Assembly: GCA_964655855.1 (NCBI GenBank) | Contig: CAZZPE010000002.1 | Coordinates: 89,076 to 153,075, forward strand | Length of the DNA stretch: 64,000 nucleotides | DNA from: an uncultured Bifidobacteriaceae bacterium | Lineage (GTDB): Bacteria > Verrucomicrobiota > Verrucomicrobiia > Limisphaerales > UBA11358 | Reading direction: 5' to 3' | Part shown: positions 2,787-63,072 of the stretch, one piece after another | How positions within the stretch are numbered: position 1 is the stretch's first letter | Layout of the letters: each line of letters starts with the position of its first letter | Notes under the pieces: model-generated | Databases searched by the model: none | What the model saw: only the letters and a program-made list of their open reading frames with translations | What the model was told of the DNA's origin: nothing | Translations under genes and position numbers: made by a program

Positions 2787-3691
2787 CCGTTCTTGAGGCG
2801 ATACAAAAGAGCGCGGATTTCCTTGGCAAAAAAGGCGCCGAGCCGCCGCGCCTGCAGGCCGAATTGCTCCTCGCGCACGCGCTCAAGCTGCCGCGGATGA
2901 AGTTGTATTTGAACTTCGATCGCGTGCTGACACCGGCGGAAATGGACGCGCTGCGCGAACTCGTCAAACGCCGCGGCCAGCGCGAGCCGCTCCAGCACAT
3001 CGTCGGCTCAACCTCTTTTTGCGGTTGTGAAATCGCCGTGAACCGCCACGCCCTCGTGCCGCGGCCGGAAACGGAACTGCTCGCCGAACTCGGCTGGCAA
3101 TTTCTTAATTCAATTTGGGAGGGTCGCCGTGTCGGCGACCCAAATTCAGGGACGGCGACACGCCGTCCCTCCCAAACCAGTGTCCCTACCGCCCTAGACT
3201 TCGGCACAGGCACCGGCTGCATCGCCATCGCGCTCGCGACAAAATGTGCAACAGCTCAAATTCTCGCCACGGACATCTCTGCGGAAGCGCTTGCCTTGGC
3301 GAAAGAAAATGCAGCACGAAACCAAGTTGCAGAACAGATTGAATTTCTGCAAAGCGACGGCTTTGCCACGCTGCCGAAAAGTGAACGCTTCGATTTGATC
3401 ATCAGTAATCCGCCTTACATTCCGTCCGCCGAAATTGCCACGCTCCAGCCGGAGGTCCGCGATTTTGATCCGCGCGCCGCGCTCGACGGCGGCGCGGACG
3501 GGCTGGATTTCTACCGGAAGCTTGCGGCGGAGGCGAAGCCGTTCCTCAAGCCGGATGGGAAAATTATGCTGGAATTCGGTGACGGCCAGGCGGAGGCAGT
3601 CAAGGCCGTTTTTGAAAATGAAAAGTGGATTGTCGAGGCGGTGCAGGAGGATTACAGTCAACGCGAAAGAATTTTGATTGCTCGATATTAA
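2783..3691 (+). CDS. prmC: Release factor glutamine N5-methyltransferase
   Basis: HemK architecture: PRPETE, SAM motif LDFGTGTGCIA, catalytic NPPY (ISNPPYIP). Carries an in-frame repeat insertion at 3114-3176. Confidence 0.85.
   Translation: MTVLEAIQKSADFLGKKGAEPPRLQAELLLAHALKLPRMKLYLNFDRVLTPAEMDALRELVKRRGQREPLQHIVGSTSFCGCEIAVNRHALVPRPETELLAELGWQFLNSIWEGRRVGDPNSGTATRRPSQTSVPTALDFGTGTGCIAIALATKCATAQILATDISAEALALAKENAARNQVAEQIEFLQSDGFATLPKSERFDLIISNPPYIPSAEIATLQPEVRDFDPRAALDGGADGLDFYRKLAAEAKPFLKPDGKIMLEFGDGQAEAVKAVFENEKWIVEAVQEDYSQRERILIARY
3114..3176. repeat. 63-bp double-hairpin palindromic element inside prmC (family A)
   Basis: tttgggag-[gggtcgccg tgt cggcgaccc]-aaattc-[agggacggcg aca cgccgtccct]-cccaaa. 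Two perfect stem-loops closed by a tttggg/cccaaa outer stem. Same architecture as 15377-15421 and 63365-63420. Confidence 0.8.
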
Positions 3692-33618: not shown

Positions 33619-35074
33619 CGGCGGAAGCGTTGGTTTGCGGCAGCCGGCCAATCCACAGGCCGCTGGTGGCGTAATGCCATTCCAATTCAGGAATGCCTGG
33701 CGGGTTGCCGCCGGAGGCGCGGAGAAGCATCCGGTCGGCGGGGCGCATCTTCTTCACCCACGGCTCGTAGGCGGCAAACGCCGCGCCACGGTTCCACTGG
33801 ATTCTGCGGAGCGTCTCCAAATCGTCCGGCCGCATCAAACCGGATTCAAAACCGAGGACGTATTTCCAGTCGGCGGCCGGGTTTTTGAAAAAAGTCTGGA
33901 AGAACACGTCCATGTCGGAGTTGTAAATGACGCCGCCGGCATCGGGCAGCCAGCCGGCGATGCCGGGCGTTTCGGGCGTGACGTATTCCGTCGTGAGGTT
34001 CGCCGTCCAACGGCCGTCGCGGTCGCTGGTGAATCCGAGAAAAGCGCCGGCGGCAATCGCCAGCGTGACGAGCAGGCGCCGGGCGGAATCGAACGAAAAA
34101 TGATTTTCAAAATGCTCCTGCAATTCCAGCGCCACCCAGACCATGAACGCCGGCGTGCCGAAATCCCACCAGAACCGGCGCATTTTTAATCCGAGCAGCC
34201 AACCCAAAACCATCATCACAAAAACCGGATTGAACAGCGCGCGTGGATTCCGGCCGGGGAAGATTTTGCGGCAGAAAATCAAGGCGACAACCGCGAGCAC
34301 GGCGGCGGTTTCGCCGTCGGACGGATACATTTCCGGTTCAAGCTGGTGGATGACGGCAATATTTCCGAACACGCCGAACATGTGCCGCACGGATTGGAAT
34401 AAAAATTCCCACGGATGGCCGGTGAGCGCGCAGCCGAGAAAACTCCCGGCGAGCCAGCAGCCGGAATACCAAATCGCCGGGCGCCAGAATCCGGCGAACA
34501 AAATTGCCGCGCCCGGCAGGCACAGCAAATACCACGAGCCGTGAACCCACGCGGATGCCGCGACGAGCAGCGGCGTTAAAACCAGGGCCAGCCGCCGGGG
34601 CCGGTCTTCCGATGGGCGCGACCACAGGAATAAAATCGTGATGAGAACGGCGTCGGTCAAAATGTATGGCCGTCCGCGCGCGAAGCGGGTGGTGCAGGCC
34701 GGAATAAAAACCGCCGCCGCAAACAACGCCGCCAGCCACGCTTCGGGCCGACGCAGCCACGGCAACGCGCTCAACGTCACCAGCAGCATCAGCGCGATGA
34801 CCGAAAAGACAACCAGCGCATCGGCGCTGCAATTTTGCCAGTTGTGAACCCATGCCAGAATCGCCTGCCAGCCGGGGCTGGGATCAATCTGAAAATCGTC
34901 CCGCATGATGAGGATTTGCTGCCACGATTTGCCGGACACCGCCTTGGCCGCGTGCCGCAGCGCGTCGTCCATCGGCAAAAACCCGTAGCCGATGATTTTC
35001 AGCGGAATGACGATGATGGTGGAGATGACGACAATCCAGACGGACAAGGGAATGTAGCGTTTGAGAGAATTCAT
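33605..35074 (-). CDS. Polytopic membrane protein, function unknown
   Basis: About 10 or more hydrophobic helices plus a C-terminal soluble domain. No diagnostic motif. Confidence 0.45.
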   Translation of the reverse strand: MNSLKRYIPLSVWIVVISTIIVIPLKIIGYGFLPMDDALRHAAKAVSGKSWQQILIMRDDFQIDPSPGWQAILAWVHNWQNCSADALVVFSVIALMLLVTLSALPWLRRPEAWLAALFAAAVFIPACTTRFARGRPYILTDAVLITILFLWSRPSEDRPRRLALVLTPLLVAASAWVHGSWYLLCLPGAAILFAGFWRPAIWYSGCWLAGSFLGCALTGHPWEFLFQSVRHMFGVFGNIAVIHQLEPEMYPSDGETAAVLAVVALIFCRKIFPGRNPRALFNPVFVMMVLGWLLGLKMRRFWWDFGTPAFMVWVALELQEHFENHFSFDSARRLLVTLAIAAGAFLGFTSDRDGRWTANLTTEYVTPETPGIAGWLPDAGGVIYNSDMDVFFQTFFKNPAADWKYVLGFESGLMRPDDLETLRRIQWNRGAAFAAYEPWVKKMRPADRMLLRASGGNPPGIPELEWHYATSGLWIGRLPQTNASADGTK

Positions 35075-37551: not shown

Positions 37552-38901
37552 ATGACCATGAAAACTCGCGTTCGATTCGCCCCATCGCCCACCGGCTACC
37601 TCCACATCGGCGGCGCGCGCACCGCGCTCTTCAACTGGCTTTACGCCCGCCACACCGGCGGCACGTTCATCCTCCGCATCGAGGACACCGACGCCGCGCG
37701 CAATTCGCAGGAAGCCGTGGACGTCATCCTCAACGGCCTCCGCTGGCTCGGCCTGAACTGGGACGAGGGTCCGCTCACTGGCAACGCCACCGGACCGTGC
37801 AAGGGCGCTTGCGGCCCCTATTTCCAAAGCCAGCGGAAGGAAAATTACCAGCGCCGCGTCGAGGCACTGCTTTCCCGCGACCTGGCTTACGAGAAAGACG
37901 GCGCGATCCATTTCCGCATGACGCGCGAGCCGATTACCATTCACGACCTCGTCGTTGGCGATGTTGTCCGCAAATTGACCGACCGCGAGGAGGTTGATCC
38001 CGATTTTGTCATCATGCGTTCGGACGGCCAGCCCGTGTTCCATCTCGTCAACGTCATTGATGATTTGGAGATGAACATCACCCACGTCATCCGCGGTGAG
38101 GACCATTTGAGCAACACCGCCAAGCACATCGCGCTCTTCAACGCATTCGGCGTCAAGCCGCCGCATTACGCGCACATCCCGCTCATCCTGAACGGCGACG
38201 GCTCCAAGATGAGCAAGCGCGACATGGGCGCGTCGCTCACCAGCTACCTCGACGACGGGTTCTTGCCCGAGGCCGTGGTGAATTTCCTCTGCCTCCTCGG
38301 CTGGTCGCCCAAGGAAAACCGCGAGAAGCTGACGCTCGCCGAAACCATCGAACGCTTCGACCTGCCGCAGATTCTCCGGCACAATGCCAAGTTCGATTAC
38401 GAAAAGCTCCTCTGGCTCCAAGGTGAATACGCTCGCGAGCTGACGGACGACCGCCTTTACGAACTGGCCGTCCACACCTTCGCCAAGGCCGGCCTCAACC
38501 CAGACGCCTATCCCCTGCCCTACGTCAAGGCCGCGCTCGACACCTGCAAGGGCAAGTTCAAGCTCTTCAGCGAACTGCCCGCCTACGCCGGTTTTTATTT
38601 CACCGACAAGATCGAATACGACGCCGAGGCCGCCAAAAAAGATTTCGTGCCGGAGAACAAGCCGCGACTGGAAAAGCTCCGCGACGCCTTTGCCGCCGCG
38701 CCCGCGTTCGATGCCGACACCCTCCAGGCCGCGCTCAAGGAAACCGCCAAGACGCTGGGCGTGAAGGCCGGCGTGCTGGTGCATCCCTGCCGCCTGGCCG
38801 TGACCGGCAAAACCTCCGGGCCGAGTCTCTACCATTTGCTCCAAGTCCTCGGCAAGGAACGTGTGATGGCGAGGATTGAAAAGGCGCTGACAGGTTTTTA
38901 G
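37552..38901 (+). CDS. gltX: Glutamyl-tRNA synthetase
   Basis: RFAPSPTGYLHIGGARTA (HIGH), KMSKR (KMSKS). Its last roughly 95 nt are duplicated at 39580-39675. Confidence 0.9.
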   Translation: MTMKTRVRFAPSPTGYLHIGGARTALFNWLYARHTGGTFILRIEDTDAARNSQEAVDVILNGLRWLGLNWDEGPLTGNATGPCKGACGPYFQSQRKENYQRRVEALLSRDLAYEKDGAIHFRMTREPITIHDLVVGDVVRKLTDREEVDPDFVIMRSDGQPVFHLVNVIDDLEMNITHVIRGEDHLSNTAKHIALFNAFGVKPPHYAHIPLILNGDGSKMSKRDMGASLTSYLDDGFLPEAVVNFLCLLGWSPKENREKLTLAETIERFDLPQILRHNAKFDYEKLLWLQGEYARELTDDRLYELAVHTFAKAGLNPDAYPLPYVKAALDTCKGKFKLFSELPAYAGFYFTDKIEYDAEAAKKDFVPENKPRLEKLRDAFAAAPAFDADTLQAALKETAKTLGVKAGVLVHPCRLAVTGKTSGPSLYHLLQVLGKERVMARIEKALTGF

Positions 38902-38949
38902 CCACGGATGAAACGCGTGTTGAATACCAGTCCTGCTGAATCGGCTGCC

Positions 38950-39573
38950 GTAGCGCCGTAGGCGCGACATCTTTGTAGCCCCGGCACAGAAAAAGATTTC
39001 CCAGCTCCGTCAGGAGCGACATATTCGGGGCATGGCCAACACCTACACCCAGATTTACATCCATGTCGTGTTTGCCGTGGAAGGACGGCAAAACCTGATT
39101 TCGCCGGAGCATAACGACGAATTGCAAAAATTCATCACCGGCATCGTGTCCGGCCTGCGGCAGAAATTGATCGCCATCAACAATATGCCGGATCATCTGC
39201 ACCTGCTCGTCGGGCTGCGACCGGATTCGTCCCTCTCTGATTTGGTGCGCGACATCAAGACGGGTTCATCCAAATTCATCAAAGAAAAACGGTGGGTGGC
39301 GGGGAGATTCTCGTGGCAGGAAGGATTCGGGGCGTTTTCGTATTCCCGCTCGCAATTGGGAACCGTCATCCGCTACATTCAAAACCAGCAACGGCATCAC
39401 GCGAAGAAATCATTTCGCGAGGAATATGTTGAATTGTTGGAACGGTTCGGCGTGGTTTACAACGCAAAATTCATTTTCAAAACCGGCGATGAATGATTCC
39501 GGAATATGTCGCCCCTACGGGGCTTGGGATTCTGGGTTGGCGGTTTCTACAAAGATGTCGCTCCTAACGGAGC
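38950..39573 (+). mobile_element. REP-flanked Y1 transposase unit (RAYT-like)
   Basis: Nested inverted REPs flank the gene. Outer pair: 38950-38979 (gtagcgccgtaggcgcgacatctttgtagc) and 39546-39573. Inner pair: 39002-39030 (agctccgtcaggagcgacatattcgggg) and 39497-39524. Confidence 0.75.
39032..39496 (+). CDS. IS200/IS605-family Y1 (HUH) transposase, REP-associated tyrosine transposase type
   Basis: HUH motif (MPDHLHLLV) and C-terminal catalytic Tyr helix (VIRYIQNQQRHH). 154 aa. Confidence 0.85.
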   Translation: MANTYTQIYIHVVFAVEGRQNLISPEHNDELQKFITGIVSGLRQKLIAINNMPDHLHLLVGLRPDSSLSDLVRDIKTGSSKFIKEKRWVAGRFSWQEGFGAFSYSRSQLGTVIRYIQNQQRHHAKKSFREEYVELLERFGVVYNAKFIFKTGDE

Positions 39574-39579
39574 TTGAAG

Positions 39580-39683
39580 CGACCGGCAAACCCGCCGGCC
39601 CCAGCCTCTACCACCTGCTCCAAGTCCTCGGCAAGGAACGCGTGATGGCGAGGATTGAGAAGGCGCTGGCAACAATGAATTGA
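39580..39683 (+). pseudogene. Orphan second copy of the gltX 3-prime end
   Basis: Encodes ...TGKPAGPSLYHLLQVLGKERVMARIEKALATMN*, versus the gltX end ...TGKTSGPSLYHLLQVLGKERVMARIEKALTGF*. About 9 mismatches over about 92 nt by eye, mostly synonymous. Confidence 0.7.
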
Positions 39684-39707
39684 AACAACAGGGAAAGGAA
39701 ATCCATT

Positions 39708-40472
39708 ATGACAAAGCGCTCCGATCTAAAACCGAAGAAAAAAGAAAGAGTGTGCGTGTTACTGGAACGAGCTGGAATTAAGGTTGTAAGAAACCAATAT
39801 TTTCTGTCTGAATGGGCTTATGTTGAATCAGGGAGGGTTGCTGTCCTAAATTTTTGGTTCGCGCAAATGAAGCAACGAGGTCAGGACATTGTTTTTAATA
39901 AGAATTTCCTTGAAGCCTACGACGCGAGAGGGAAGAGGAATCAAGCCAGAGTAAAACAAGCGATTAGAGAAAAACTTCCAATTCGCATTATTGTTCTGGA
40001 TGGAAAGATGGGCAGTCCCAAGGGAAGCATTGTTTCCAAAAGGCAATTGGATCCAGCCATTTGGCGTGTGACTGCTGTTGACCAAAAAACTGGTGATTAC
40101 ACTTTGACGCGAGTAGCAGAAATGGAGAATGCCATTGATGACCTGTCGGCTCCTCCAGAGGGAAATCAGTTTCCAGATAGGGCAAGCGTCGTTGTCCAAG
40201 CCATAAAACGTGATAATCGAGTAAGGGCACACGCGATTAAACGTGCGAGAGGAAAATGCGAATATTGCAATGTTCAGGGTTTTGCTACAACAAACGGTCG
40301 CTTCTATGTGGAAGCCCATCACATTATTGCGCTATGCGATGCGGGACGCGACACGGTTGACAATGTGATTGCGCTTTGTCCACAGCACCACCGGCAAGCA
40401 CATTACGGTAAAGATGCGGAATCTCTGGAGTCGGAATTCATCAAGATTTTAGAGAAGTTGAACAAGAAATAA
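39708..40472 (+). CDS. HNH endonuclease with an uncharacterised about 170-aa N-terminal domain
   Basis: C-terminal CEYC...EAHHIIALCDAGRDTVDNVIALCPQHHRQAH (HNH/McrA-like). AT-rich. gggaaagga Shine-Dalgarno. Confidence 0.75.
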   Translation: MTKRSDLKPKKKERVCVLLERAGIKVVRNQYFLSEWAYVESGRVAVLNFWFAQMKQRGQDIVFNKNFLEAYDARGKRNQARVKQAIREKLPIRIIVLDGKMGSPKGSIVSKRQLDPAIWRVTAVDQKTGDYTLTRVAEMENAIDDLSAPPEGNQFPDRASVVVQAIKRDNRVRAHAIKRARGKCEYCNVQGFATTNGRFYVEAHHIIALCDAGRDTVDNVIALCPQHHRQAHYGKDAESLESEFIKILEKLNKK

Positions 40473-40590
40473 TAGGTGTCCCGCCTTGCGCCCGCCCCTT
40501 TCCGTGGTGCTGCGCTTCCGCCTGCGTTTCACTTCCGCCTTCATCCGGTTTCGACGAGACGTTTTGGGGAGCACATGCCTCGCGCGTGTC

Positions 40591-40633
40591 GTTTTCGGCG
40601 TCGCGCCGAAAACCTCGTCCGGCAAACTTGCCG
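40591..40633. repeat. Two GC-rich hairpins adjoining array 2
   Basis: gttttcggcg-tcg-cgccgaaaac (10-bp stem) and cggcaa-ac-ttgccg. Confidence 0.7.
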
Positions 40634-40676
40634 CTGCATTTCAAACAAAACTGGCTTTTGTTCAGAATAACCGATT

Positions 40677-41000
40677 TTGGGGGATTCTTACATAAATCCA
40701 TGACGAAGGAACATTGATGTTCCATAGATTAACATCAATCCATGTCAGGTTAATGTTCATTCGTTGTAAAAGAATGTTCCTTTGCCACGGATTAATCTTC
40801 TTTCGCTTAAGAGGATATTCGTTCGTCACGGTTTAACATTCGGATGCGATAAATGAATGTTCTTCCATCGTAAAAGAACATTCTCCCGTGACGGATTGAT
40901 GTTCTCCTGTCATGGATTTACGTGATTTTTGGTTCGCGGATGATCCTCCAACCACGGCTTTTCCTGATTTTCTAAAACCGGGTCACGGGTTTCTCCCTTT
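40677..41000. repeat. Degenerate about 21-bp tandem array, AT-rich, about 14-16 units (array 2)
   Basis: Units such as cacggattaatcttctttcg / cacggtttaacattcggatg / catcgtaaaagaacattctcc / cgtgacggattgatgttctcc / tgtcatggatttacgtgattttt. Recurrent GGATT...TTCTCC core. Confidence 0.65.
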
Positions 41001-41131
41001 CCGTGGTGCTGCGCCGTGCCTTCGCCTTCGTCCGCGTGCGCCGCAGGCTTGTCAATTCCAACCATCGGACAGGCTGTGGAGGGATTTTGCTCCGGTAAAA
41101 ACCCTTGAGGGAAATTCGCAAATCTGCTTTT

Positions 41132-43213
41132 ATGCGCGCTTTGAATTCCATGAACAGTCGTTGGGCGGCCATCGTCACAGCAACCCTTCTTGCTTTTGCC
41201 AGCCTTGTCATCGCATGGCAGTTTCGGCATTACAATGATACTGGCGTGGAGAATTGGTTTTCGTCCCTGGGACACACCTATCTTCGAGGGAAACAATTGT
41301 CGGCGATTACCGACATAGTGGAGCGGGAAAGACAAATCACACCGGCGGCCGCAGGGGTCAGACAAATTGATTTAATGTATCCAAAGGATGCGCGCATTTT
41401 CATGATGGACATGATCGGCCCCACCAACTACGACAAGATTGGATATTATTTTTGGGCAACCTATTACCTCTTCCCGCGTGAAATCGGGACAAGTCTGGAT
41501 CACGTAACCCGGCAAACCAAGGACGGCTTTGTCGGCACAACATCCGACTCCATTCAGGAAATTCTTTCCAACGGATATGATGTCAGGATGATGGTGCTGG
41601 ACAAGAACACGAGCGGTTTTCAGCCACTTCGGAACATGCCCATTGGACAGCCGGCCAACCCGGACTGGTTTGGCTCGAAACACGACCTGGTCGTCGCGTT
41701 TTTGCTTCCATTGCTGACGGCGTTTGCGGGAATATGGTTGTTCCGTTTTTTCTTTTCCACATTGGACGGGCGGATGGCGTTTTTCGAACAACTGGCCTGC
41801 GGCCTGGGTTTGGGAATGATGGCTGTGGCGGCGCTTACATTGGGCATCAAACTTTGTGGTTTTCACGGACGCGGGCTGATTCTCGTTGTCACCGCCCTTG
41901 GCGCAACTGCCGAAATATGGCGCGATCGCAGAGTGCTTTTGACAAAGATAACCGACAGTTTCAGGGCGCTGTTTCGCAATCCCATTACGGCAGCCTGCGT
42001 GATAATCGGCCTGTTTGTGTTTGCGATCCTGTTCCATATCGCCGGTCTGCAGGGACTTACCGACCCCGACGCGATGAGGTGGATGCTCAAGGCGAAGATG
42101 ATTCATCTCTACACCGGGCATGAACTGGTGCAGTGGTTTTCCAACCCCGCGCTGGCACATGCGCACCTCGACTATCCGACGCTCGTGCCTTCGCTGCATT
42201 CAGCCACGTATGATTCCATCGGTCATGTGGATGAGTTCGTCACAAAGTTCTGGCCCACCTGGATGCTGCTGTTTCTTCTGATCGCCCTGGCTTCGGCGAT
42301 CCGCATCGGGAACGGCTGGTTTCATGCCGCGCCATTTGCGCTCCTGGGGTTTCTGCTGTTGCCGGCCACGCAGCAATATGTCCAGTGGGAAGGCAGCACC
42401 ATGCCGATGATTTTCTTTACGATCATGGGCTTCATGCAATGCGCCATCTATCTGGCCGGAAAAGACCGCGCCCGGCTTGGACTTGGGCTGACGCTATTGT
42501 TCGGGGCGGCCATGACAAAGTTCGAGGGCAGTATATTTCTGGCGCTGGTGGGAGGCTGGATTTTGCTGCTGCCGTCGGCCCGACCCTCGTTGAAACTGTC
42601 GCCACGCCTCTGGCTGGCGGTGGTGTTCTGTTTTCTGGCGGCCCTGCCTTTTGTCTGCCTGCGTTTTCAAATACCCACATTGAACTACGAATCGAGTTCG
42701 GTTGGCGACGTGCTGCACCACCCGGCCACGTTCTTTTCAACCCTTGCGGATTTGCCCCGCCTCTTGCTGATTGAGTTTGCGCGATTGTTTGTGAATCCCG
42801 ACTTTGCAAACTGGAATGGTGAAGGCGGTCAGCTTCATTGGATCGGCAAATGGGCCGGCCTTTCTTCGCTGTATAATCCTTCCACGCTTGGGGTGGCGTG
42901 GCTGTGCCTGTTGATGACGATCACACTTTGGTTTTCCGTTCCATCACGACGCCAGGTGATCGCATGGACACTCGCAATGTTTGTCGGCGCCACGTTTGCG
43001 TTATGCGGTGTTTTCACAACCTTTGTCAGCATCCACAGCTTGAGCGATGTGATTGGTTATACCAACGATGGAGCGGGTGGACGATATCTTCTCCCGGTGT
43101 TGCTGGCATGGTTTACGACAATGACCATGCTTTTTTCCGAGGCGGAAAGGGCTGCTCAGAAACCCGCCACCGCCACCGCCCGCATCGTGGGAAAAAAGCG
43201 CAAACGCCGGTAG
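41132..43213 (+). CDS. Large polytopic membrane protein, function unknown
   Basis: At least 12 hydrophobic helices over about 690 aa. No diagnostic motif. Start uncertain (TTG 41105 or ATG 41132). Confidence 0.5.
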   Translation: MRALNSMNSRWAAIVTATLLAFASLVIAWQFRHYNDTGVENWFSSLGHTYLRGKQLSAITDIVERERQITPAAAGVRQIDLMYPKDARIFMMDMIGPTNYDKIGYYFWATYYLFPREIGTSLDHVTRQTKDGFVGTTSDSIQEILSNGYDVRMMVLDKNTSGFQPLRNMPIGQPANPDWFGSKHDLVVAFLLPLLTAFAGIWLFRFFFSTLDGRMAFFEQLACGLGLGMMAVAALTLGIKLCGFHGRGLILVVTALGATAEIWRDRRVLLTKITDSFRALFRNPITAACVIIGLFVFAILFHIAGLQGLTDPDAMRWMLKAKMIHLYTGHELVQWFSNPALAHAHLDYPTLVPSLHSATYDSIGHVDEFVTKFWPTWMLLFLLIALASAIRIGNGWFHAAPFALLGFLLLPATQQYVQWEGSTMPMIFFTIMGFMQCAIYLAGKDRARLGLGLTLLFGAAMTKFEGSIFLALVGGWILLLPSARPSLKLSPRLWLAVVFCFLAALPFVCLRFQIPTLNYESSSVGDVLHHPATFFSTLADLPRLLLIEFARLFVNPDFANWNGEGGQLHWIGKWAGLSSLYNPSTLGVAWLCLLMTITLWFSVPSRRQVIAWTLAMFVGATFALCGVFTTFVSIHSLSDVIGYTNDGAGGRYLLPVLLAWFTTMTMLFSEAERAAQKPATATARIVGKKRKRR

Positions 43214-43455
43214 AATGTTTCATCTGCAATCCTGCGATGACGAGTTTTGGTCTGAAGCGGCCCGGTTTTCACCGATGGGCAGAGCTCGCACGCATCAAAA
43301 CATTCTGAACGGAAACGCTCAAACTGCCGATTCAACCGTCGCGGCGGGTGCTGCGCCGCGCCTTCGCCTCCAGTGTCGGTCCGACAACCGGTTTCAATTT
43401 TCATTCGTCATTGACAAGGCCGGATTCAGGTGGAAAATCGGAATCCTATTTGACT

Positions 43456-45236: not shown

Positions 45237-45740
45237 TCAGCCTTTCTTAAAAGACTTCGTGTCGTCGCCGGTGCCGGTGATCGGATTGGCGCGGAACTTG
45301 TCGCCCAATCCGGCAAAAGGCTCCTGCGCCATGAGCCAGCGCGGATTTTTGGCGATGGTGTCCATGCTTTCGCGCGTATTGTTGCAAATCAGATAAAGCG
45401 CCCGCCCCAGAACCATGAACGATTCAAAGCCGGTGCCGGTGCCGTGACGGGCAAATTCAAAATCGCCAGTGCCATAATCCGCGTTGAGCAGTCCCGCGCG
45501 CAGGGTGCCGAGATCCTTTGCGAAGTTTGCCATGAAGTCGTCATGACGAGGGCCGACGTAGGCCAGCACGCGCGCCTTGTTGTCCAGCAGCGAGATCACC
45601 GCCCACTCGTCGAAGACGATCCGCCCGTAGCGCGCGTCCATTTGAGCGGCGCATGCCTTGATCTGAACGATGGCTTCTTCAAGCGTCACGGTTCTTTTTT
45701 TGGCCGCGCAGAGCAAAGCAGCAAAGCGCGGCGGATACAA
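45237..45740 (-). CDS. Hypothetical protein
   Basis: 167-aa ORF, no recognisable motif. Confidence 0.4.
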   Translation of the reverse strand: MYPPRFAALLCAAKKRTVTLEEAIVQIKACAAQMDARYGRIVFDEWAVISLLDNKARVLAYVGPRHDDFMANFAKDLGTLRAGLLNADYGTGDFEFARHGTGTGFESFMVLGRALYLICNNTRESMDTIAKNPRWLMAQEPFAGLGDKFRANPITGTGDDTKSFKKG

Positions 45741-59806: not shown

Positions 59807-59877
59807 AACATTTCCCGTTGCCCGCTAAAATACATCTCCTTGCGCCGCTTTGCGAGTGTAGCGGGCGCGGCGAATGT

Positions 59878-59916
59878 TTCTCCCTCTCCTTGGAGGAGAG
59901 GGCCGGGGTGAGGTCG
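59878..59916. repeat. Family F hairpin element (ctctcc/ggagag + ggtgagg)
   Basis: ttctccctctccttggaggagagggccggggtgaggtc. Further copies at 60371-60407, 60488-60527, 60553-60595, 60668-60712, 62330-62390 and 63006-63065. Confidence 0.8.
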
Positions 59917-59925
59917 AGTGTTGAA

Positions 59926-60321
59926 CTAACTTTTGTTTTCCGCCTTCATCGGCCTCGTATATTCCGGCAGCGGATGCGGCGCGCGGGACTGCAATTCGTT
60001 GAAAACGGTGTCGCGGATGCTTTGGGCATTGCGACGCAGATGCGAATTCCAAAAACGCAGCGTCTTGATGCCGCGCGATTGCAGAAATTTTTCCCGTTCC
60101 GAGTCGTGTTTCCGCTGGTCGGGAAAACCGTGCTGGCTGCCATCCAGTTCCACATTCAACTCCGCCTCCTCGCAAAAGAAATCCAGGTAATAATCGCCGA
60201 GCGGATGCTGGCGGCGGAATTTGTAGCCGCTGAACCGCCGGTCACGCAGCCAGCGCCACATCAGTTTTTCCGCCCAGGTTTCATCCTTGCGAAGCTGGCG
60301 GGCGCGGGCGATGTCGGCCAT
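59926..60321 (-). CDS. DUF559 (Vsr-like endonuclease fold) protein
   Basis: ARQLRKDETWAEKLMWRWLRDRRFSGYKFRRQHPLGDYYLDFFCEEAELNVELDGSQH matches the DUF559 signature. Confidence 0.8.
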   Translation of the reverse strand: MADIARARQLRKDETWAEKLMWRWLRDRRFSGYKFRRQHPLGDYYLDFFCEEAELNVELDGSQHGFPDQRKHDSEREKFLQSRGIKTLRFWNSHLRRNAQSIRDTVFNELQSRAPHPLPEYTRPMKAENKS

Positions 60322-60365
60322 GACGGGAATTTAGGAAATGACAATTGATCTGAAAAGTTTGTTTT

Positions 60366-60742
60366 GACGCTCGCCCTCACCTAAATCCTCTCCCCCGGGG
60401 AGAGGACTTCAGCAATCACGCTCTTGGTGATTCGATGAAGCTCCGGCCAGTCCCGCCGCTCGTATTTCCAAAGACGCGGCGAATGTTCCTCCCTCTCCTC
60501 GGAGGAGAGGGCCGGGGTGAGGTCGGTTGTAAAATCCAGTTTATCTTGGTGGACGCCCGCCCTCACCTTTTATCCTCTCCCCCAGGAGAGGAAATCACCA
60601 TTGGACGTTTCTGGTTTTGCGGATGACCGTCCGGCCAATCCCGACGCTGGTTTTGCCAAAGACGCGGCGCGCGTGGCTCCTTCTCCTTGGGGAGAAGGCC
60701 GGGTTGAGGGAGAACGTAAAACTAATTTTGAAGTTTGTGTTT
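60366..60742. repeat. Tandem duplication of an about 185-bp unit, each bounded by inverted family F elements
   Basis: Unit 1 is 60366-60550, unit 2 is 60551-60742. Shared internal core ccggcca(g/a)tcccg.cgct.gt.ttt.ccaaagacgcggcg. Confidence 0.7.
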
Positions 60743-62019: not shown

Positions 62020-62412
62020 ACTAAAAAGGTGCGCGGCATAGTCGCAGTGATAATAAAAGCTGCCGGTCTTTTTGAGGACGCGCGCCAGTTGTTCGCAGCG
62101 CGGGCGCATGTAGTCAATGTAAGCCGTGGTGGATTCGTGGCGGTCGTCAAACCGCCGCTTCTCGCTCGTCTCCGGCCAGAAGATTTCGTAGTTGCGGTTG
62201 GAATTGAACGGCGGGTCAATGTAAATCAAATCCACGCAGCCGTCGGGCAGCTTCTTGAGCTGGTCCAGATTGTCGCCGCAGTAGATGACGCGGGTGTCGA
62301 GGAGGGGGCTGGGCTTCGCGATTGTTTTGCCCGCCCTCACCCCGGCCCTCTCCCCCGGGGAGAGGGTGTCCGCAGGACGGGTGAGGGGTTCTGCGTCTGC
62401 TTTCTTTGCCAT
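62005..62412 (-). pseudogene. Truncated N4/N6 DNA methyltransferase (N-terminal fragment only)
   Basis: VIYCGDNLDQLKKLPDGCVDLIYIDPPFNSNRNY (DPPF motif IV region), then ...GSFYYHCD. The ORF ends where AT-rich DNA begins. A family F repeat is translated near its N-terminus. Confidence 0.7.
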
Positions 62413-63005: not shown

Positions 63006-63072
63006 ACCCTCACCCCGTCCCTCTCCCATCCGATGGGAGAGGGTGGCCGAAGGCCGGGTGAGGGTTTTTCTC
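63006..63072 (+). terminator. Family F nested hairpin doubling as a terminator candidate
   Basis: accctcaccc-cgtc-cctctccc-atccgat-gggagagg-...-gggtgagggt, followed by ttttctc. Confidence 0.55.

Follow-up and report, generated by a model that had tools for sequence, protein, structure and literature searches.

The orphan copy of the gltX end that lies downstream of the gene in the window (the whole 64,000-nt stretch of DNA analysed here) is probably a recombination scar. In this reading, DNA that came from a related genome, together with a gltX end of its own and a small insertion sequence (IS), entered a slot for small cassettes. As part of the same explanation, and with the same moderate confidence, we regard the gltX end as a slot where small selfish cassettes accumulate in this genus of uncultured Verrucomicrobia (subdivision 3). 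The transposase between the two gltX ends is an ordinary IS200-type passenger and not the cause of the duplication.

The end of gltX is present twice

The gltX gene (37552–38901, + strand) is intact and encodes a glutamate–tRNA ligase of 449 aa, with the Pfam domains tRNA-synt_1c and Anticodon_2 and a score of 439 bits against NCBIfam TIGR00464, for which the cut-off is 290. A direct repeat of 91 nt occupies window positions 38802–38892 and 39581–39671, and the ungapped alignment of the two copies is identical at 81 of the 91 positions (89%; BLAST E = 2.8e-28 within the genome). The first copy, tailA (+ strand, defined by the alignment), is in frame and corresponds to the last 30 gltX codons ahead of the final 3, and the second, tailB (39581–39683, + strand, defined by alignment and Pfam), comprises the repeat followed by its own last codons, ...ATMN, and a stop; both encode GPSLYHLLQVLGKERVMARIEKAL. 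BLAST within the genome found only these two copies in the 3.04-Mb assembly. The repeat had originally been predicted at about 95 nt with about 9 substitutions; it is real, but measures 91 nt with 10 substitutions. Codon by codon, 7 of these are synonymous and 3 are non-synonymous (T>P, S>A and T>A), in line with the expectation that they would be mostly synonymous, and the precise alignment and dS/dN comparison that had been proposed gave dN = 0.046 and dS = 0.40 by the NG86 method (dN/dS of approximately 0.12).

TailB has no plausible start of its own, and its Pfam match is limited to positions 113–141 of Anticodon_2. We considered whether it forms part of another gene and rejected this, since the open reading frame at 39426–39683 begins inside the transposase gene and its Anticodon_2 match is confined to the last 29 aa. 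As the genome of the window (G000) is a metagenome-assembled genome of 96 contigs and 87% completeness, two strain variants of the gltX end might have been stitched together in the bin; this is extremely improbable, because the copies differ at 10 sites, their flanks differ as well, and the same IS-to-tail junction is common to five independent assemblies of different species, including ones of 4, 10 and 20 contigs (G147, G141/G150 and G018, respectively).

The transposase belongs to an IS200-like unit

The interval between the copies (38902–39580) was thought to hold only a transposase gene flanked by nested inverted repeats, and tnpA is indeed its sole gene and the repeats are present, but it also contains a 50-nt spacer (38902–38951, + strand) similar to the native sequence that follows gltX. 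The first approximately 25 nt of this spacer (CCACGGATGAAACGCG...) resemble the post-tail sequence of cassette-free genomes (TAG CCACAGATGAAACAC...), a native motif that was seen after the sole tail of G139 (locus L047) and after the last array tail in G099, G007 and G060; the last tail of an array leads into native downstream sequence. We also asked whether the spacer, which forms the left flank of the IS, could be the 5′ portion that tailB lacks, and found only a weak similarity (p of approximately 0.05 against shuffles).

Next to the spacer lies an IS200-like unit of 626 nt (38952–39577, + strand), in which two hairpins on the left are followed by tnpA and by two hairpins on the right in inverted order, its limits being drawn from homology with a second copy on contig C17 of the same genome (77.5% over 628 nt). 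The tnpA gene (39032–39496, + strand) encodes a Y1 (HUH) transposase of 154 aa (Pfam PF01797, Y1_Tnp, E = 3e-24) with its HLH motif within ...MPDHLHLLVGL..., and the inverted repeats I1–I4 form two nested pairs of 20–31 nt, each with a 5-bp hairpin stem. The RAYT label given to this gene by the original prediction does not stand: the protein passes the NCBIfam model NF033573 for IS200/IS605 (66.7, cut-off 55) and falls below the cut-off of the RAYT model NF047646 (37.9 bits, cut-off 80).

IS200/IS605 elements insert without target duplication, on the 3′ side of a fixed tetra- or pentanucleotide. Like them, the window unit has a Y1 HUH transposase between sub-terminal hairpins. The copy on C17 has flanks without a duplication. 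Its score against the RAYT model sets it apart from REP/RAYT systems, as does its distribution, since a RAYT is present in a single copy while its REPs or REPINs are dispersed over the genome, whereas here there are 1–4 copies of the IS per relative genome and the hairpin ends are not dispersed. G000 carries two copies, on contigs C2 and C17, whose transposases share 81% aa identity, and the IS end motif GCGACATNTTTGTAG occurs in this genome only at these two loci and at one solo site on contig C55, so that a genome-wide REPIN family was rejected. A RAYT-less REPIN-like derivative is present in the relative G004. The left flanks of the IS copies end in ..CCGT, ..GTTC, ..GTTT and ..TTTT, with no clear common target among the sequences compared.

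The original prediction had the unit behaving as a small island, and we weighed the corresponding explanation, namely that the Y1 unit integrated into the gltX end in an att-like manner or captured its flank by one-ended HUH transposition. TailB starts 3 nt past the right end of the IS, the right join falls exactly (within 3 nt) at this end in four genomes, and a HUH nick could supply a DNA end; moreover, in at least 10 genomes a member of the IS family directly follows gltX. However, 5 of 10 such genomes lack a second tail, most tail duplications enclose transposase-free cargo, and neither the insertion mode of the family nor the unduplicated C17 copy provides for a repeat, all of which makes this explanation very improbable. 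RAYT-driven duplication was ruled out by the same C17 copy and the same transposase-free cargo, and island-like behavior is further contradicted by the presence of the same scar, with unrelated cargo, elsewhere in the genome. The comparison of sequences shows that duplicated tails recur across the genus, that further cassettes were added beside the gene, and that the duplication does not depend on the transposase.

Tail arrays recur across the genus

Among the 144 genomes of the genus that have a gltX tail, 18 carry 2–4 tail copies; most genomes of the genus have a single tail, as in G139 (L047), where it is followed by native downstream sequence. The intervals between tails are cassettes of 316–870 nt with at least six types of cargo and, in relatives, one or two small genes apiece. 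The cargo seen at the gltX site and at other loci comprises tnpA, ParE-type pairs, DUF4160/DUF2442, DUF6883/DUF4926, HNH and DUF559 genes. Relatives that lack the transposase of the window still have 2–4 tails, and the intervals contain toxin-antitoxin-like pairs or other cargo, an outcome that the original prediction had itself named as speaking against it.

The tail–IS–tail module is colinear in G000, G141, G150 and G018, and between gltX and this module G150 and G018 carry a more recent toxin-antitoxin-like cassette that has a tail of its own. In the window, the module lies in a variable slot delimited by synteny (38902–43340), which contains the spacer, the IS, the orphan tail, an HNH endonuclease gene, a 21-bp repeat array and a gene for a membrane protein of 702 aa. 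With G141 as the closest relative, synteny picks up again at approximately 43344 (WIN 4845 aligned with L048 3352), a position that a second comparison supported. The HNH gene (39708–40472, + strand; Pfam HNH and HNH_2) lies in a low-GC stretch (GC 0.44–0.49). A search with an nhmmer profile of 40 tails found no third, decayed tail after the HNH gene up to window position 45500.

The final codons of a tail and the spacer that follows co-vary with the next cassette, regardless of the tail allele. For instance, ..A(A/T)IG* precedes DUF4160 in both K-type and N-type hosts, and ..EKFS* precedes HNH. This co-variation points to imported gene ends. In addition, the DUF4160/DUF2442 module is also found away from gltX with gltX tail pieces on both sides (G150:C2 and G139:C110), which is the outcome expected of a circularly permuted intermediate made of a cassette plus a tail.

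The same scar is found beside other genes

At least nine further sites in G000, beside other genes, bear the same scar, with ParE pairs, DUF559 and other cargo. The repeats at these loci are 90–96% identical and are the ends of unrelated genes that share no motif, and repeat lengths range from 54 to approximately 170 nt; duplications are also present at the 5′ ends of genes and in intergenic DNA (thyA head and dnaE head).

The orphan 5′ edges at gltX, whose positions were read by hand, are clustered, with at least four independent junctions within 3 nt of −33 and others at −62 and −20. This clustering across differing cargo could be explained by a site-specific recombinase encoded elsewhere (integron-like or Xer-like), acting on a core in the gltX tail and on circular cassettes that bear a copy of the site. 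The compact one- or two-gene cassettes, the tandem arrays and the toxin-antitoxin pairs, which are typical integron cargo, are also as such an enzyme would have them. Nevertheless, we consider it quite unlikely, because repeat lengths vary, because the repeats at the other loci have no motif in common, and because no recombinase was found in or beside the array of the window (no recombinase domains between 30.4 and 48 kb). The tail also has no attC-like fold: such a structure was rejected on a single-stranded DNA folding z-score of −1.3.

Polarity and allelic origin of the two tails

Orthologues of the HNH gene (56–58% aa identity) directly follow an in-frame, single gltX tail in G165, G089, G049 and G156, with a similar spacer, and the in-frame tail of G156 is 91.2% identical to tailB and 84.6% identical to tailA. 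Because tailB is still joined to the HNH gene, which follows the in-frame gltX end in these four other species, it represents the displaced, older end. We therefore infer from this arrangement, and from the order of modules in relatives, that tailA is the end that arrived with the incoming DNA, and the HNH gene belongs to an earlier cassette, with tailB as its partner upstream. The proposal that the downstream orphan is a remnant is supported by this tailB–HNH arrangement.

We pooled the differences between orphan and in-frame tails and counted 104 synonymous and 74 non-synonymous changes. The non-synonymous share of 41.6% is close to the 42.7% seen between functional tails of different genomes, and differs from the approximately 65% expected for one neutral branch (binomial p = 1.6e-10 against 0.65, in a test that treats related orphans as independent). 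These findings indicate that the differences between orphan and in-frame tails are of the kind seen between functional alleles and, together with the tailB–HNH arrangement, they support the original idea that the incoming related DNA had its own gltX terminus. The best nearest-neighbor identities over 93 nt were 90% for tailA and 93.5% for tailB, a length too short to assign either tail to a donor lineage by identity alone, and the gltX body is 92% identical to that of G141. Third-position identities of tnpA and gltX were incongruent between genome pairs, in both directions, which would fit exchange and fixes no history.

These data bear on a further explanation, in which insertion was accompanied by a true long target duplication, through the filling in of staggered breaks or through replication template switching, so that the copies were at first identical and the in-frame copy was later replaced by homologous recombination with relatives. 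Restriction-modification units have been interpreted in this way in the literature (PMC2853133), the explanation suits the high identities at the other loci of G000, and the duplicated thyA and dnaE heads and intergenic DNA need no replacement of a gene end. We nonetheless judge it unlikely for the gltX tails, as the final in-frame codons co-vary with the cassette across hosts of differing tail alleles, the substitutions between orphan and in-frame copies follow the functional-allele pattern, and modules take tail pieces along to other loci.

Proposed history of the locus

According to the explanation we favor, in which related DNA with its own gltX end entered the slot, the older state of the locus would have been gltX(tailB)–HNH. 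The incoming DNA would have consisted of the 3′ portion of the donor's gltX (tailA), approximately 50 nt of native downstream sequence and the IS200-like element inserted there. The left join would have been made by homologous recombination inside gltX, and on the right the IS edge would have been fused to the resident tail 20 nt ahead of its PSLYHLL codons; as a result of these two joins, gltX would have been kept intact and the resident end turned into the orphan tailB. Every cassette arrival would thus leave a spare copy of the last 30–45 codons of gltX.

The joining agent was most likely the host's own recombination, acting without a dedicated integrase, although the chemistry of joining is itself inferred. 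One route would combine a homologous crossover with an illegitimate join. Such homology-facilitated illegitimate recombination was reportedly described in naturally transformable bacteria by de Vries and Wackernagel and by Prudhomme and co-workers, both in 2002. A homologous anchor with an illegitimate join would place foreign DNA beside a conserved gene and give a donor-type end, the cargo and the recipient's own end, but this process predicts neither the clustered nor the compact junctions seen here. The other route would be the Campbell-type integration of a circle, containing a cassette and one tail, born from recombination between two flanking tails. Once a tail–cassette–tail module exists, its tails could serve as portable homology arms and allow it to spread among relatives. 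Two points count against this history: a first donor is required in which cargo already lay behind gltX, and pure illegitimate joining would have scattered the junctions and the orphan 5′ edges more than is observed.

Comparison with known systems

Among known systems, insertion with long target duplication, as described for restriction-modification units, comes closest (Furuta, Abe & Kobayashi 2010, NAR 38:2428; PMC2853133); the original report is given there as Nobusato et al. 2000, and the mechanism is left open. In both cases a short, integrase-free insert is bracketed by direct repeats, tens to hundreds of bp long, which often overlap the 3′ end of a gene; the repeats align with a single-copy target in insert-free genomes, and the cargo is of a selfish or addiction type. 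The 91-nt repeat is longer than the 30 bp used by Furuta et al. for a repeat that is single-copy in the insert-free genome. Their exclusion of mobile-element genes in or beside the insert holds for the toxin-antitoxin-like cassettes at gltX in relatives and at the other loci of G000, but not for the window, in which the insert is itself an IS200-like unit. The cargo differs too, consisting here of the IS200-like element, toxin-antitoxin-like pairs and HNH genes where theirs is restriction-modification units, and the repeats are diverged alleles where theirs are near-identical. Also unlike that system, the cassettes here form tandem arrays with as many as four tails, located at a single essential gene across a genus. 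Our literature search for toxin-antitoxin cassettes with a 3′-end duplication found nothing relevant.

Tandem accretion also occurs in integrative elements that bring a replacement gene end, for example e14 in the Escherichia coli icd gene and islands in tRNA or tmRNA genes. As in those elements, the incoming DNA here would rebuild the 3′ end, push the old end downstream and place the newest unit next to the gene, as seen in the in-frame tail–HNH arrangement of four species and in the gene-proximal position of the newer cassettes in G018 and G150. Elements of the e14 type, however, have their own integrase and a defined, identical core, whereas the units here are 0.3–0.9 kb long and without a recombinase, tnpA being all that the interval of the window encodes. 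Integrons resemble the arrays in their promoter-poor one- or two-gene cassettes, many of them toxin-antitoxin pairs, in the repeated site between cassettes and in having the newest cassette nearest the entry, but they depend on IntI and attC; here there is neither an IntI beside the array nor an attC fold, and what is repeated is the coding end of a gene, which differs by locus.

Significance

It is poorly understood how accessory units as small as toxin-antitoxin pairs and lone nucleases can move in the absence of a mobility gene. The locus adds polarity, with the newest cassette beside the gene and the old end displaced. It provides evidence that spare gene ends are imported functional alleles, as opposed to duplicates generated on the spot, and a set of arrays spanning the genus with which the process can be dated and tested. 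The attractive but wrong idea of a RAYT-like transposase that acts as an island is also corrected.

More tentatively, selfish cassettes (toxin-antitoxin pairs, HNH genes and IS elements) might use the ends of essential genes as portable homology arms, with tail–tail recombination freeing a circle of cassette and one tail that re-enters related genomes by a single host-mediated crossover in gltX. This is a conjecture we regard as possible but doubtful. If true, it would constitute an integrase-free counterpart of the integron, building ordered arrays beside conserved genes, and the permuted modules at G150:C2 and G139:C110 would be misplaced integrations of such circles. The end of gltX is probably a site that receives small selfish gene cassettes in many soil Verrucomicrobia.

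The end of gltX is duplicated around an IS200-like unit

The gltX gene (37552-38901, plus strand) encodes a protein of 449 aa with the Pfam domains tRNA-synt_1c and Anticodon_2 and a match to NCBIfam TIGR00464 (439 bits). Its end, at 38802-38892 (tailA), is repeated at 39581-39671 as a gapless 91-nt direct repeat with 81/91 identities, which bears out the original observation of a diverged duplication of the gltX end around a Y1 transposase. A whole-genome search found only these two copies in the genome under study, G000 (second copy, E = 2.8e-28). The differences between tailA and the orphan copy (tailB) are, as had been proposed, mostly synonymous, with 7 synonymous and 3 non-synonymous changes (T>P, S>A and T>A), giving a dN of 0.046 and a dS of 0.40 by NG86. 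All three non-synonymous states are also found in functional in-frame tails of relatives, as in the KPAG allele of G060, G004 and G165. TailA is followed by a 50-nt spacer (38902-38951) and an IS200-like unit of 626 nt (38952-39577) composed of two hairpins, a Y1 transposase gene (39032-39496, 154 aa) and two hairpins in inverted order. TailB starts 3 nt past this unit and has its own stop at 39683 and no credible start codon.

The transposase does not account for the duplication

The transposase had been identified as a RAYT, which proved incorrect: it scored 37.9 bits against a cut-off of 80 in the NCBIfam RAYT model, and passed the IS200/IS605 model with 66.7 bits (cut-off 55). The ends of the unit were defined from its 628-nt homology with a second G000 copy (contig C17, ~34280-34900; 81% amino acid identity, 77.5% nucleotide identity over 628 nt), which has a MoxR-like ATPase gene on one side and a DUF58 gene on the other, and no flanking duplication. 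Because the end motifs in G000 are limited to these two IS loci and one solo site (C55:3835), there is no REPIN population. The IS family is present in 44/163 genus genomes at 1-4 copies each, and lies just 3′ of gltX in at least 10 of them; a trailing orphan tail follows the gltX-adjacent IS in five (G000, G018, G141, G147 and G150) and is missing from five others (G163, G134, G082, G046 and G115). The unflanked C17 copy and the latter five genomes argue against the proposal that the transposase unit caused the duplication. We conclude that it is an ordinary IS200-type element, often found in the variable DNA behind gltX, and that the tail duplications were not made by it.

In G004, a RAYT-less, REPIN-like IS derivative of ~200 nt (locus L054, 1376-1570) lies directly behind an orphan gltX tail and consists of two left hairpins, a short centre and two right hairpins, with no transposase; its first two bases complete the stop codon of the preceding tail. 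The cassette ahead of that tail, that is, the small cargo between successive tails, carries a true RAYT on the opposite strand (NCBIfam, 83.1 bits; cut-off 80). In four genomes (loci L048, L049, L050 and L054) the IS abuts the tail, the stop TAG being formed by T and the first AG of the IS, and this junction equals the window sequence 38893-38960 minus 50 nt deleted between two TAGC tetranucleotides.

Cassettes recur behind gltX

Among the 144 genus genomes having a gltX tail, 18 show 2-4 tail matches, and at 16 fetched loci the tails are spaced by cassettes of 316-870 nt. Their cargo comprises DUF4160 with DUF2442, two kinds of ParE-type toxin with antitoxin, DUF6883 with DUF4926, the IS200-like unit and the RAYT of G004, while HNH genes are placed after a gltX tail in three genomes among the fetched loci. 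We found no recombinase domain in the window between 30.4 and 48 kb and no unusual single-strand fold of the gltX tail. The duplication is a property of the gltX site and is independent of the transposase. It was also observed that window 39684-43340, containing an HNH gene, a 21-bp repeat array and the gene for a 702-aa membrane protein, is absent from the closest relative, G141, which has other DNA with a 374-aa secreted-looking ORF at the equivalent place; synteny returns at about 43344.

Spare gene ends and their polarity

The last codons of the tail and the adjoining spacer track the following cassette, irrespective of the host tail allele. For instance, three K-type and four N-type genomes have ..A(A/T)IG* and an 18-nt spacer ahead of DUF4160, and this motif is missing from seven K-type genomes that lack the DUF4160 cassette; ahead of HNH, tails of the K, KPAG and N types all end in ..EKFS*. 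When 19 orphan tails were each compared with their own genome's in-frame tail, the pooled changes (104 synonymous, 74 non-synonymous) gave a non-synonymous fraction of 0.416, compared to 0.427 between functional tails of different genomes and 0.75 for random change. Divergence along one neutral branch would be expected to give about 0.65, which was rejected (binomial p = 1.6e-10, with related orphans pooled and not independent). Older orphan tails are decayed, with frameshifts and ragged 5′ parts (G147 tail 3, G060 tail 2 and G127 tail 2). These sequence comparisons indicate that the spare gltX ends are imported gene ends rather than in-place copies.

The tail-IS-tail module is colinear across G000, G141, G150 and G018. 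In G018 and G150, an extra toxin-antitoxin-like cassette with its own tail is placed between gltX and this module, and the counterpart of tailA is an orphan; new arrivals therefore enter beside the gene. Orthologues of the window HNH gene (56-58% amino acid identity) directly follow a single in-frame gltX tail in G165, G089, G049 and G156, with a short spacer similar to that of the window (AAAGGAAAT..ATG), so that tailB-HNH is a former gene end, and the newcomer is made up of tailA with its 50-nt spacer and IS. Identity to the in-frame tail of G156 is 91.2% for tailB and 84.6% for tailA. The start of the 50-nt spacer resembles the native sequence found after single tails and after the last tails of arrays, which fits a donor in which a plain IS insertion had occurred about 50 nt downstream of gltX. 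The four in-frame arrangements agree with the predicted arrival of DNA with its own gltX end, leaving the downstream copy as a remnant; of the original interpretation, the imported end and displaced remnant are thus retained and the role of a RAYT is not.

Similar scars occur at other genes

Self-comparison of the whole G000 assembly revealed other scars. At gene ends, repeats bracket an antitoxin and ParE-like pair at an ECF sigma gene (C4:81058-81763; 68 nt, 96%), a ParE-like pair at an ABC ATPase gene (C22:22433-23194; 67 nt, 94%), DUF559 at a gene of 648 aa (C25:35340-36035; 79 nt, 90%), a 300-aa LamG-like protein at an aminopeptidase gene (C6:29317-30479; 86 nt, 85%) and a 329-aa thioredoxin-like (TlpA-like) protein at a gene of 227 aa (C5:65933-67078; 54 nt, 93%). 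ParE pairs are found at the 5′ regions of thyA (C4:102410-103157; 82 nt, 91%) and dnaE (C27:14832-15670; 117 nt, 82%). Within the window, 51-nt repeats of 96% identity (59866-59916 and 60475-60525) delimit a scar at 59866-60525 holding a DUF559-type endonuclease gene (131 aa, minus strand, about 59926-60321). Near the window end there is also a direct repeat of 60-70 nt in three copies (85-94% identity, spaced 0.7-1.1 kb), at 62334-62400, at 63007-63067 and past the window end (C2:151409, 152082 and 153226, respectively).

The DUF4160/DUF2442 module was found away from gltX in three genomes. In G150 (C2), a decayed gltX tail end lies ahead of it and the opening ~10 nt of a tail behind it; in G139 (C110, locus L056), 25 nt of tail end lie on its left and a tail from position -33 (relative to the PSLYHLL codons) on its right; in G134, it lies beside an aminopeptidase gene with no tail pieces. 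The G139 module adjoins a 93-nt direct repeat of the kdsA 5′ region (2634-2726 and 3443-3535, 95.7%) that brackets another cassette with a 165-aa ORF; together they resemble a mixed array assembled from two distinct target genes.

Possible routes of entry

The loci show recurrent entry on the gene side, with gene ends imported and old ends displaced, no local recombinase and no dependence on the transposase; host recombination would carry out this entry. In one route, a homologous crossover in gltX would be combined with illegitimate joining at the distal end. Orphan 5′ edges, read by hand, are clustered: at least four independent junctions lie no more than 3 nt from -33 (TGCCGGCTGGCC), another five gather near -62 and a further four at -20/-21. 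Random illegitimate joining does not account for such a preferred breakpoint. The -33 cluster was drawn from tails in L046, L049, L053, L054, L056 and L057. In a second route, recombination between two flanking tails would free a circle of the cassette and one tail, which a single crossover would then join to a chromosomal tail; the permuted modules away from gltX fit this circle route. The right join of the window module falls exactly at the IS end, and one might speculate that an HUH nick supplied the DNA end there.

The closest described phenomenon is the insertion with long target duplication of restriction-modification units, in which integrase-free inserts are flanked by repeats of 46-420 bp that are single-copy in empty genomes and in some cases overlap gene 3′ ends, by a mechanism that is unknown (Furuta et al. 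2010, PMC2853133). The gltX site differs in its cargo, in having cassettes stacked in tandem beside a single essential gene, in the divergence of its repeats and in the evidence for imported ends. The gltX locus offers a clear and well-supported case of a process that has been little described, for which we infer the mechanism of joining.
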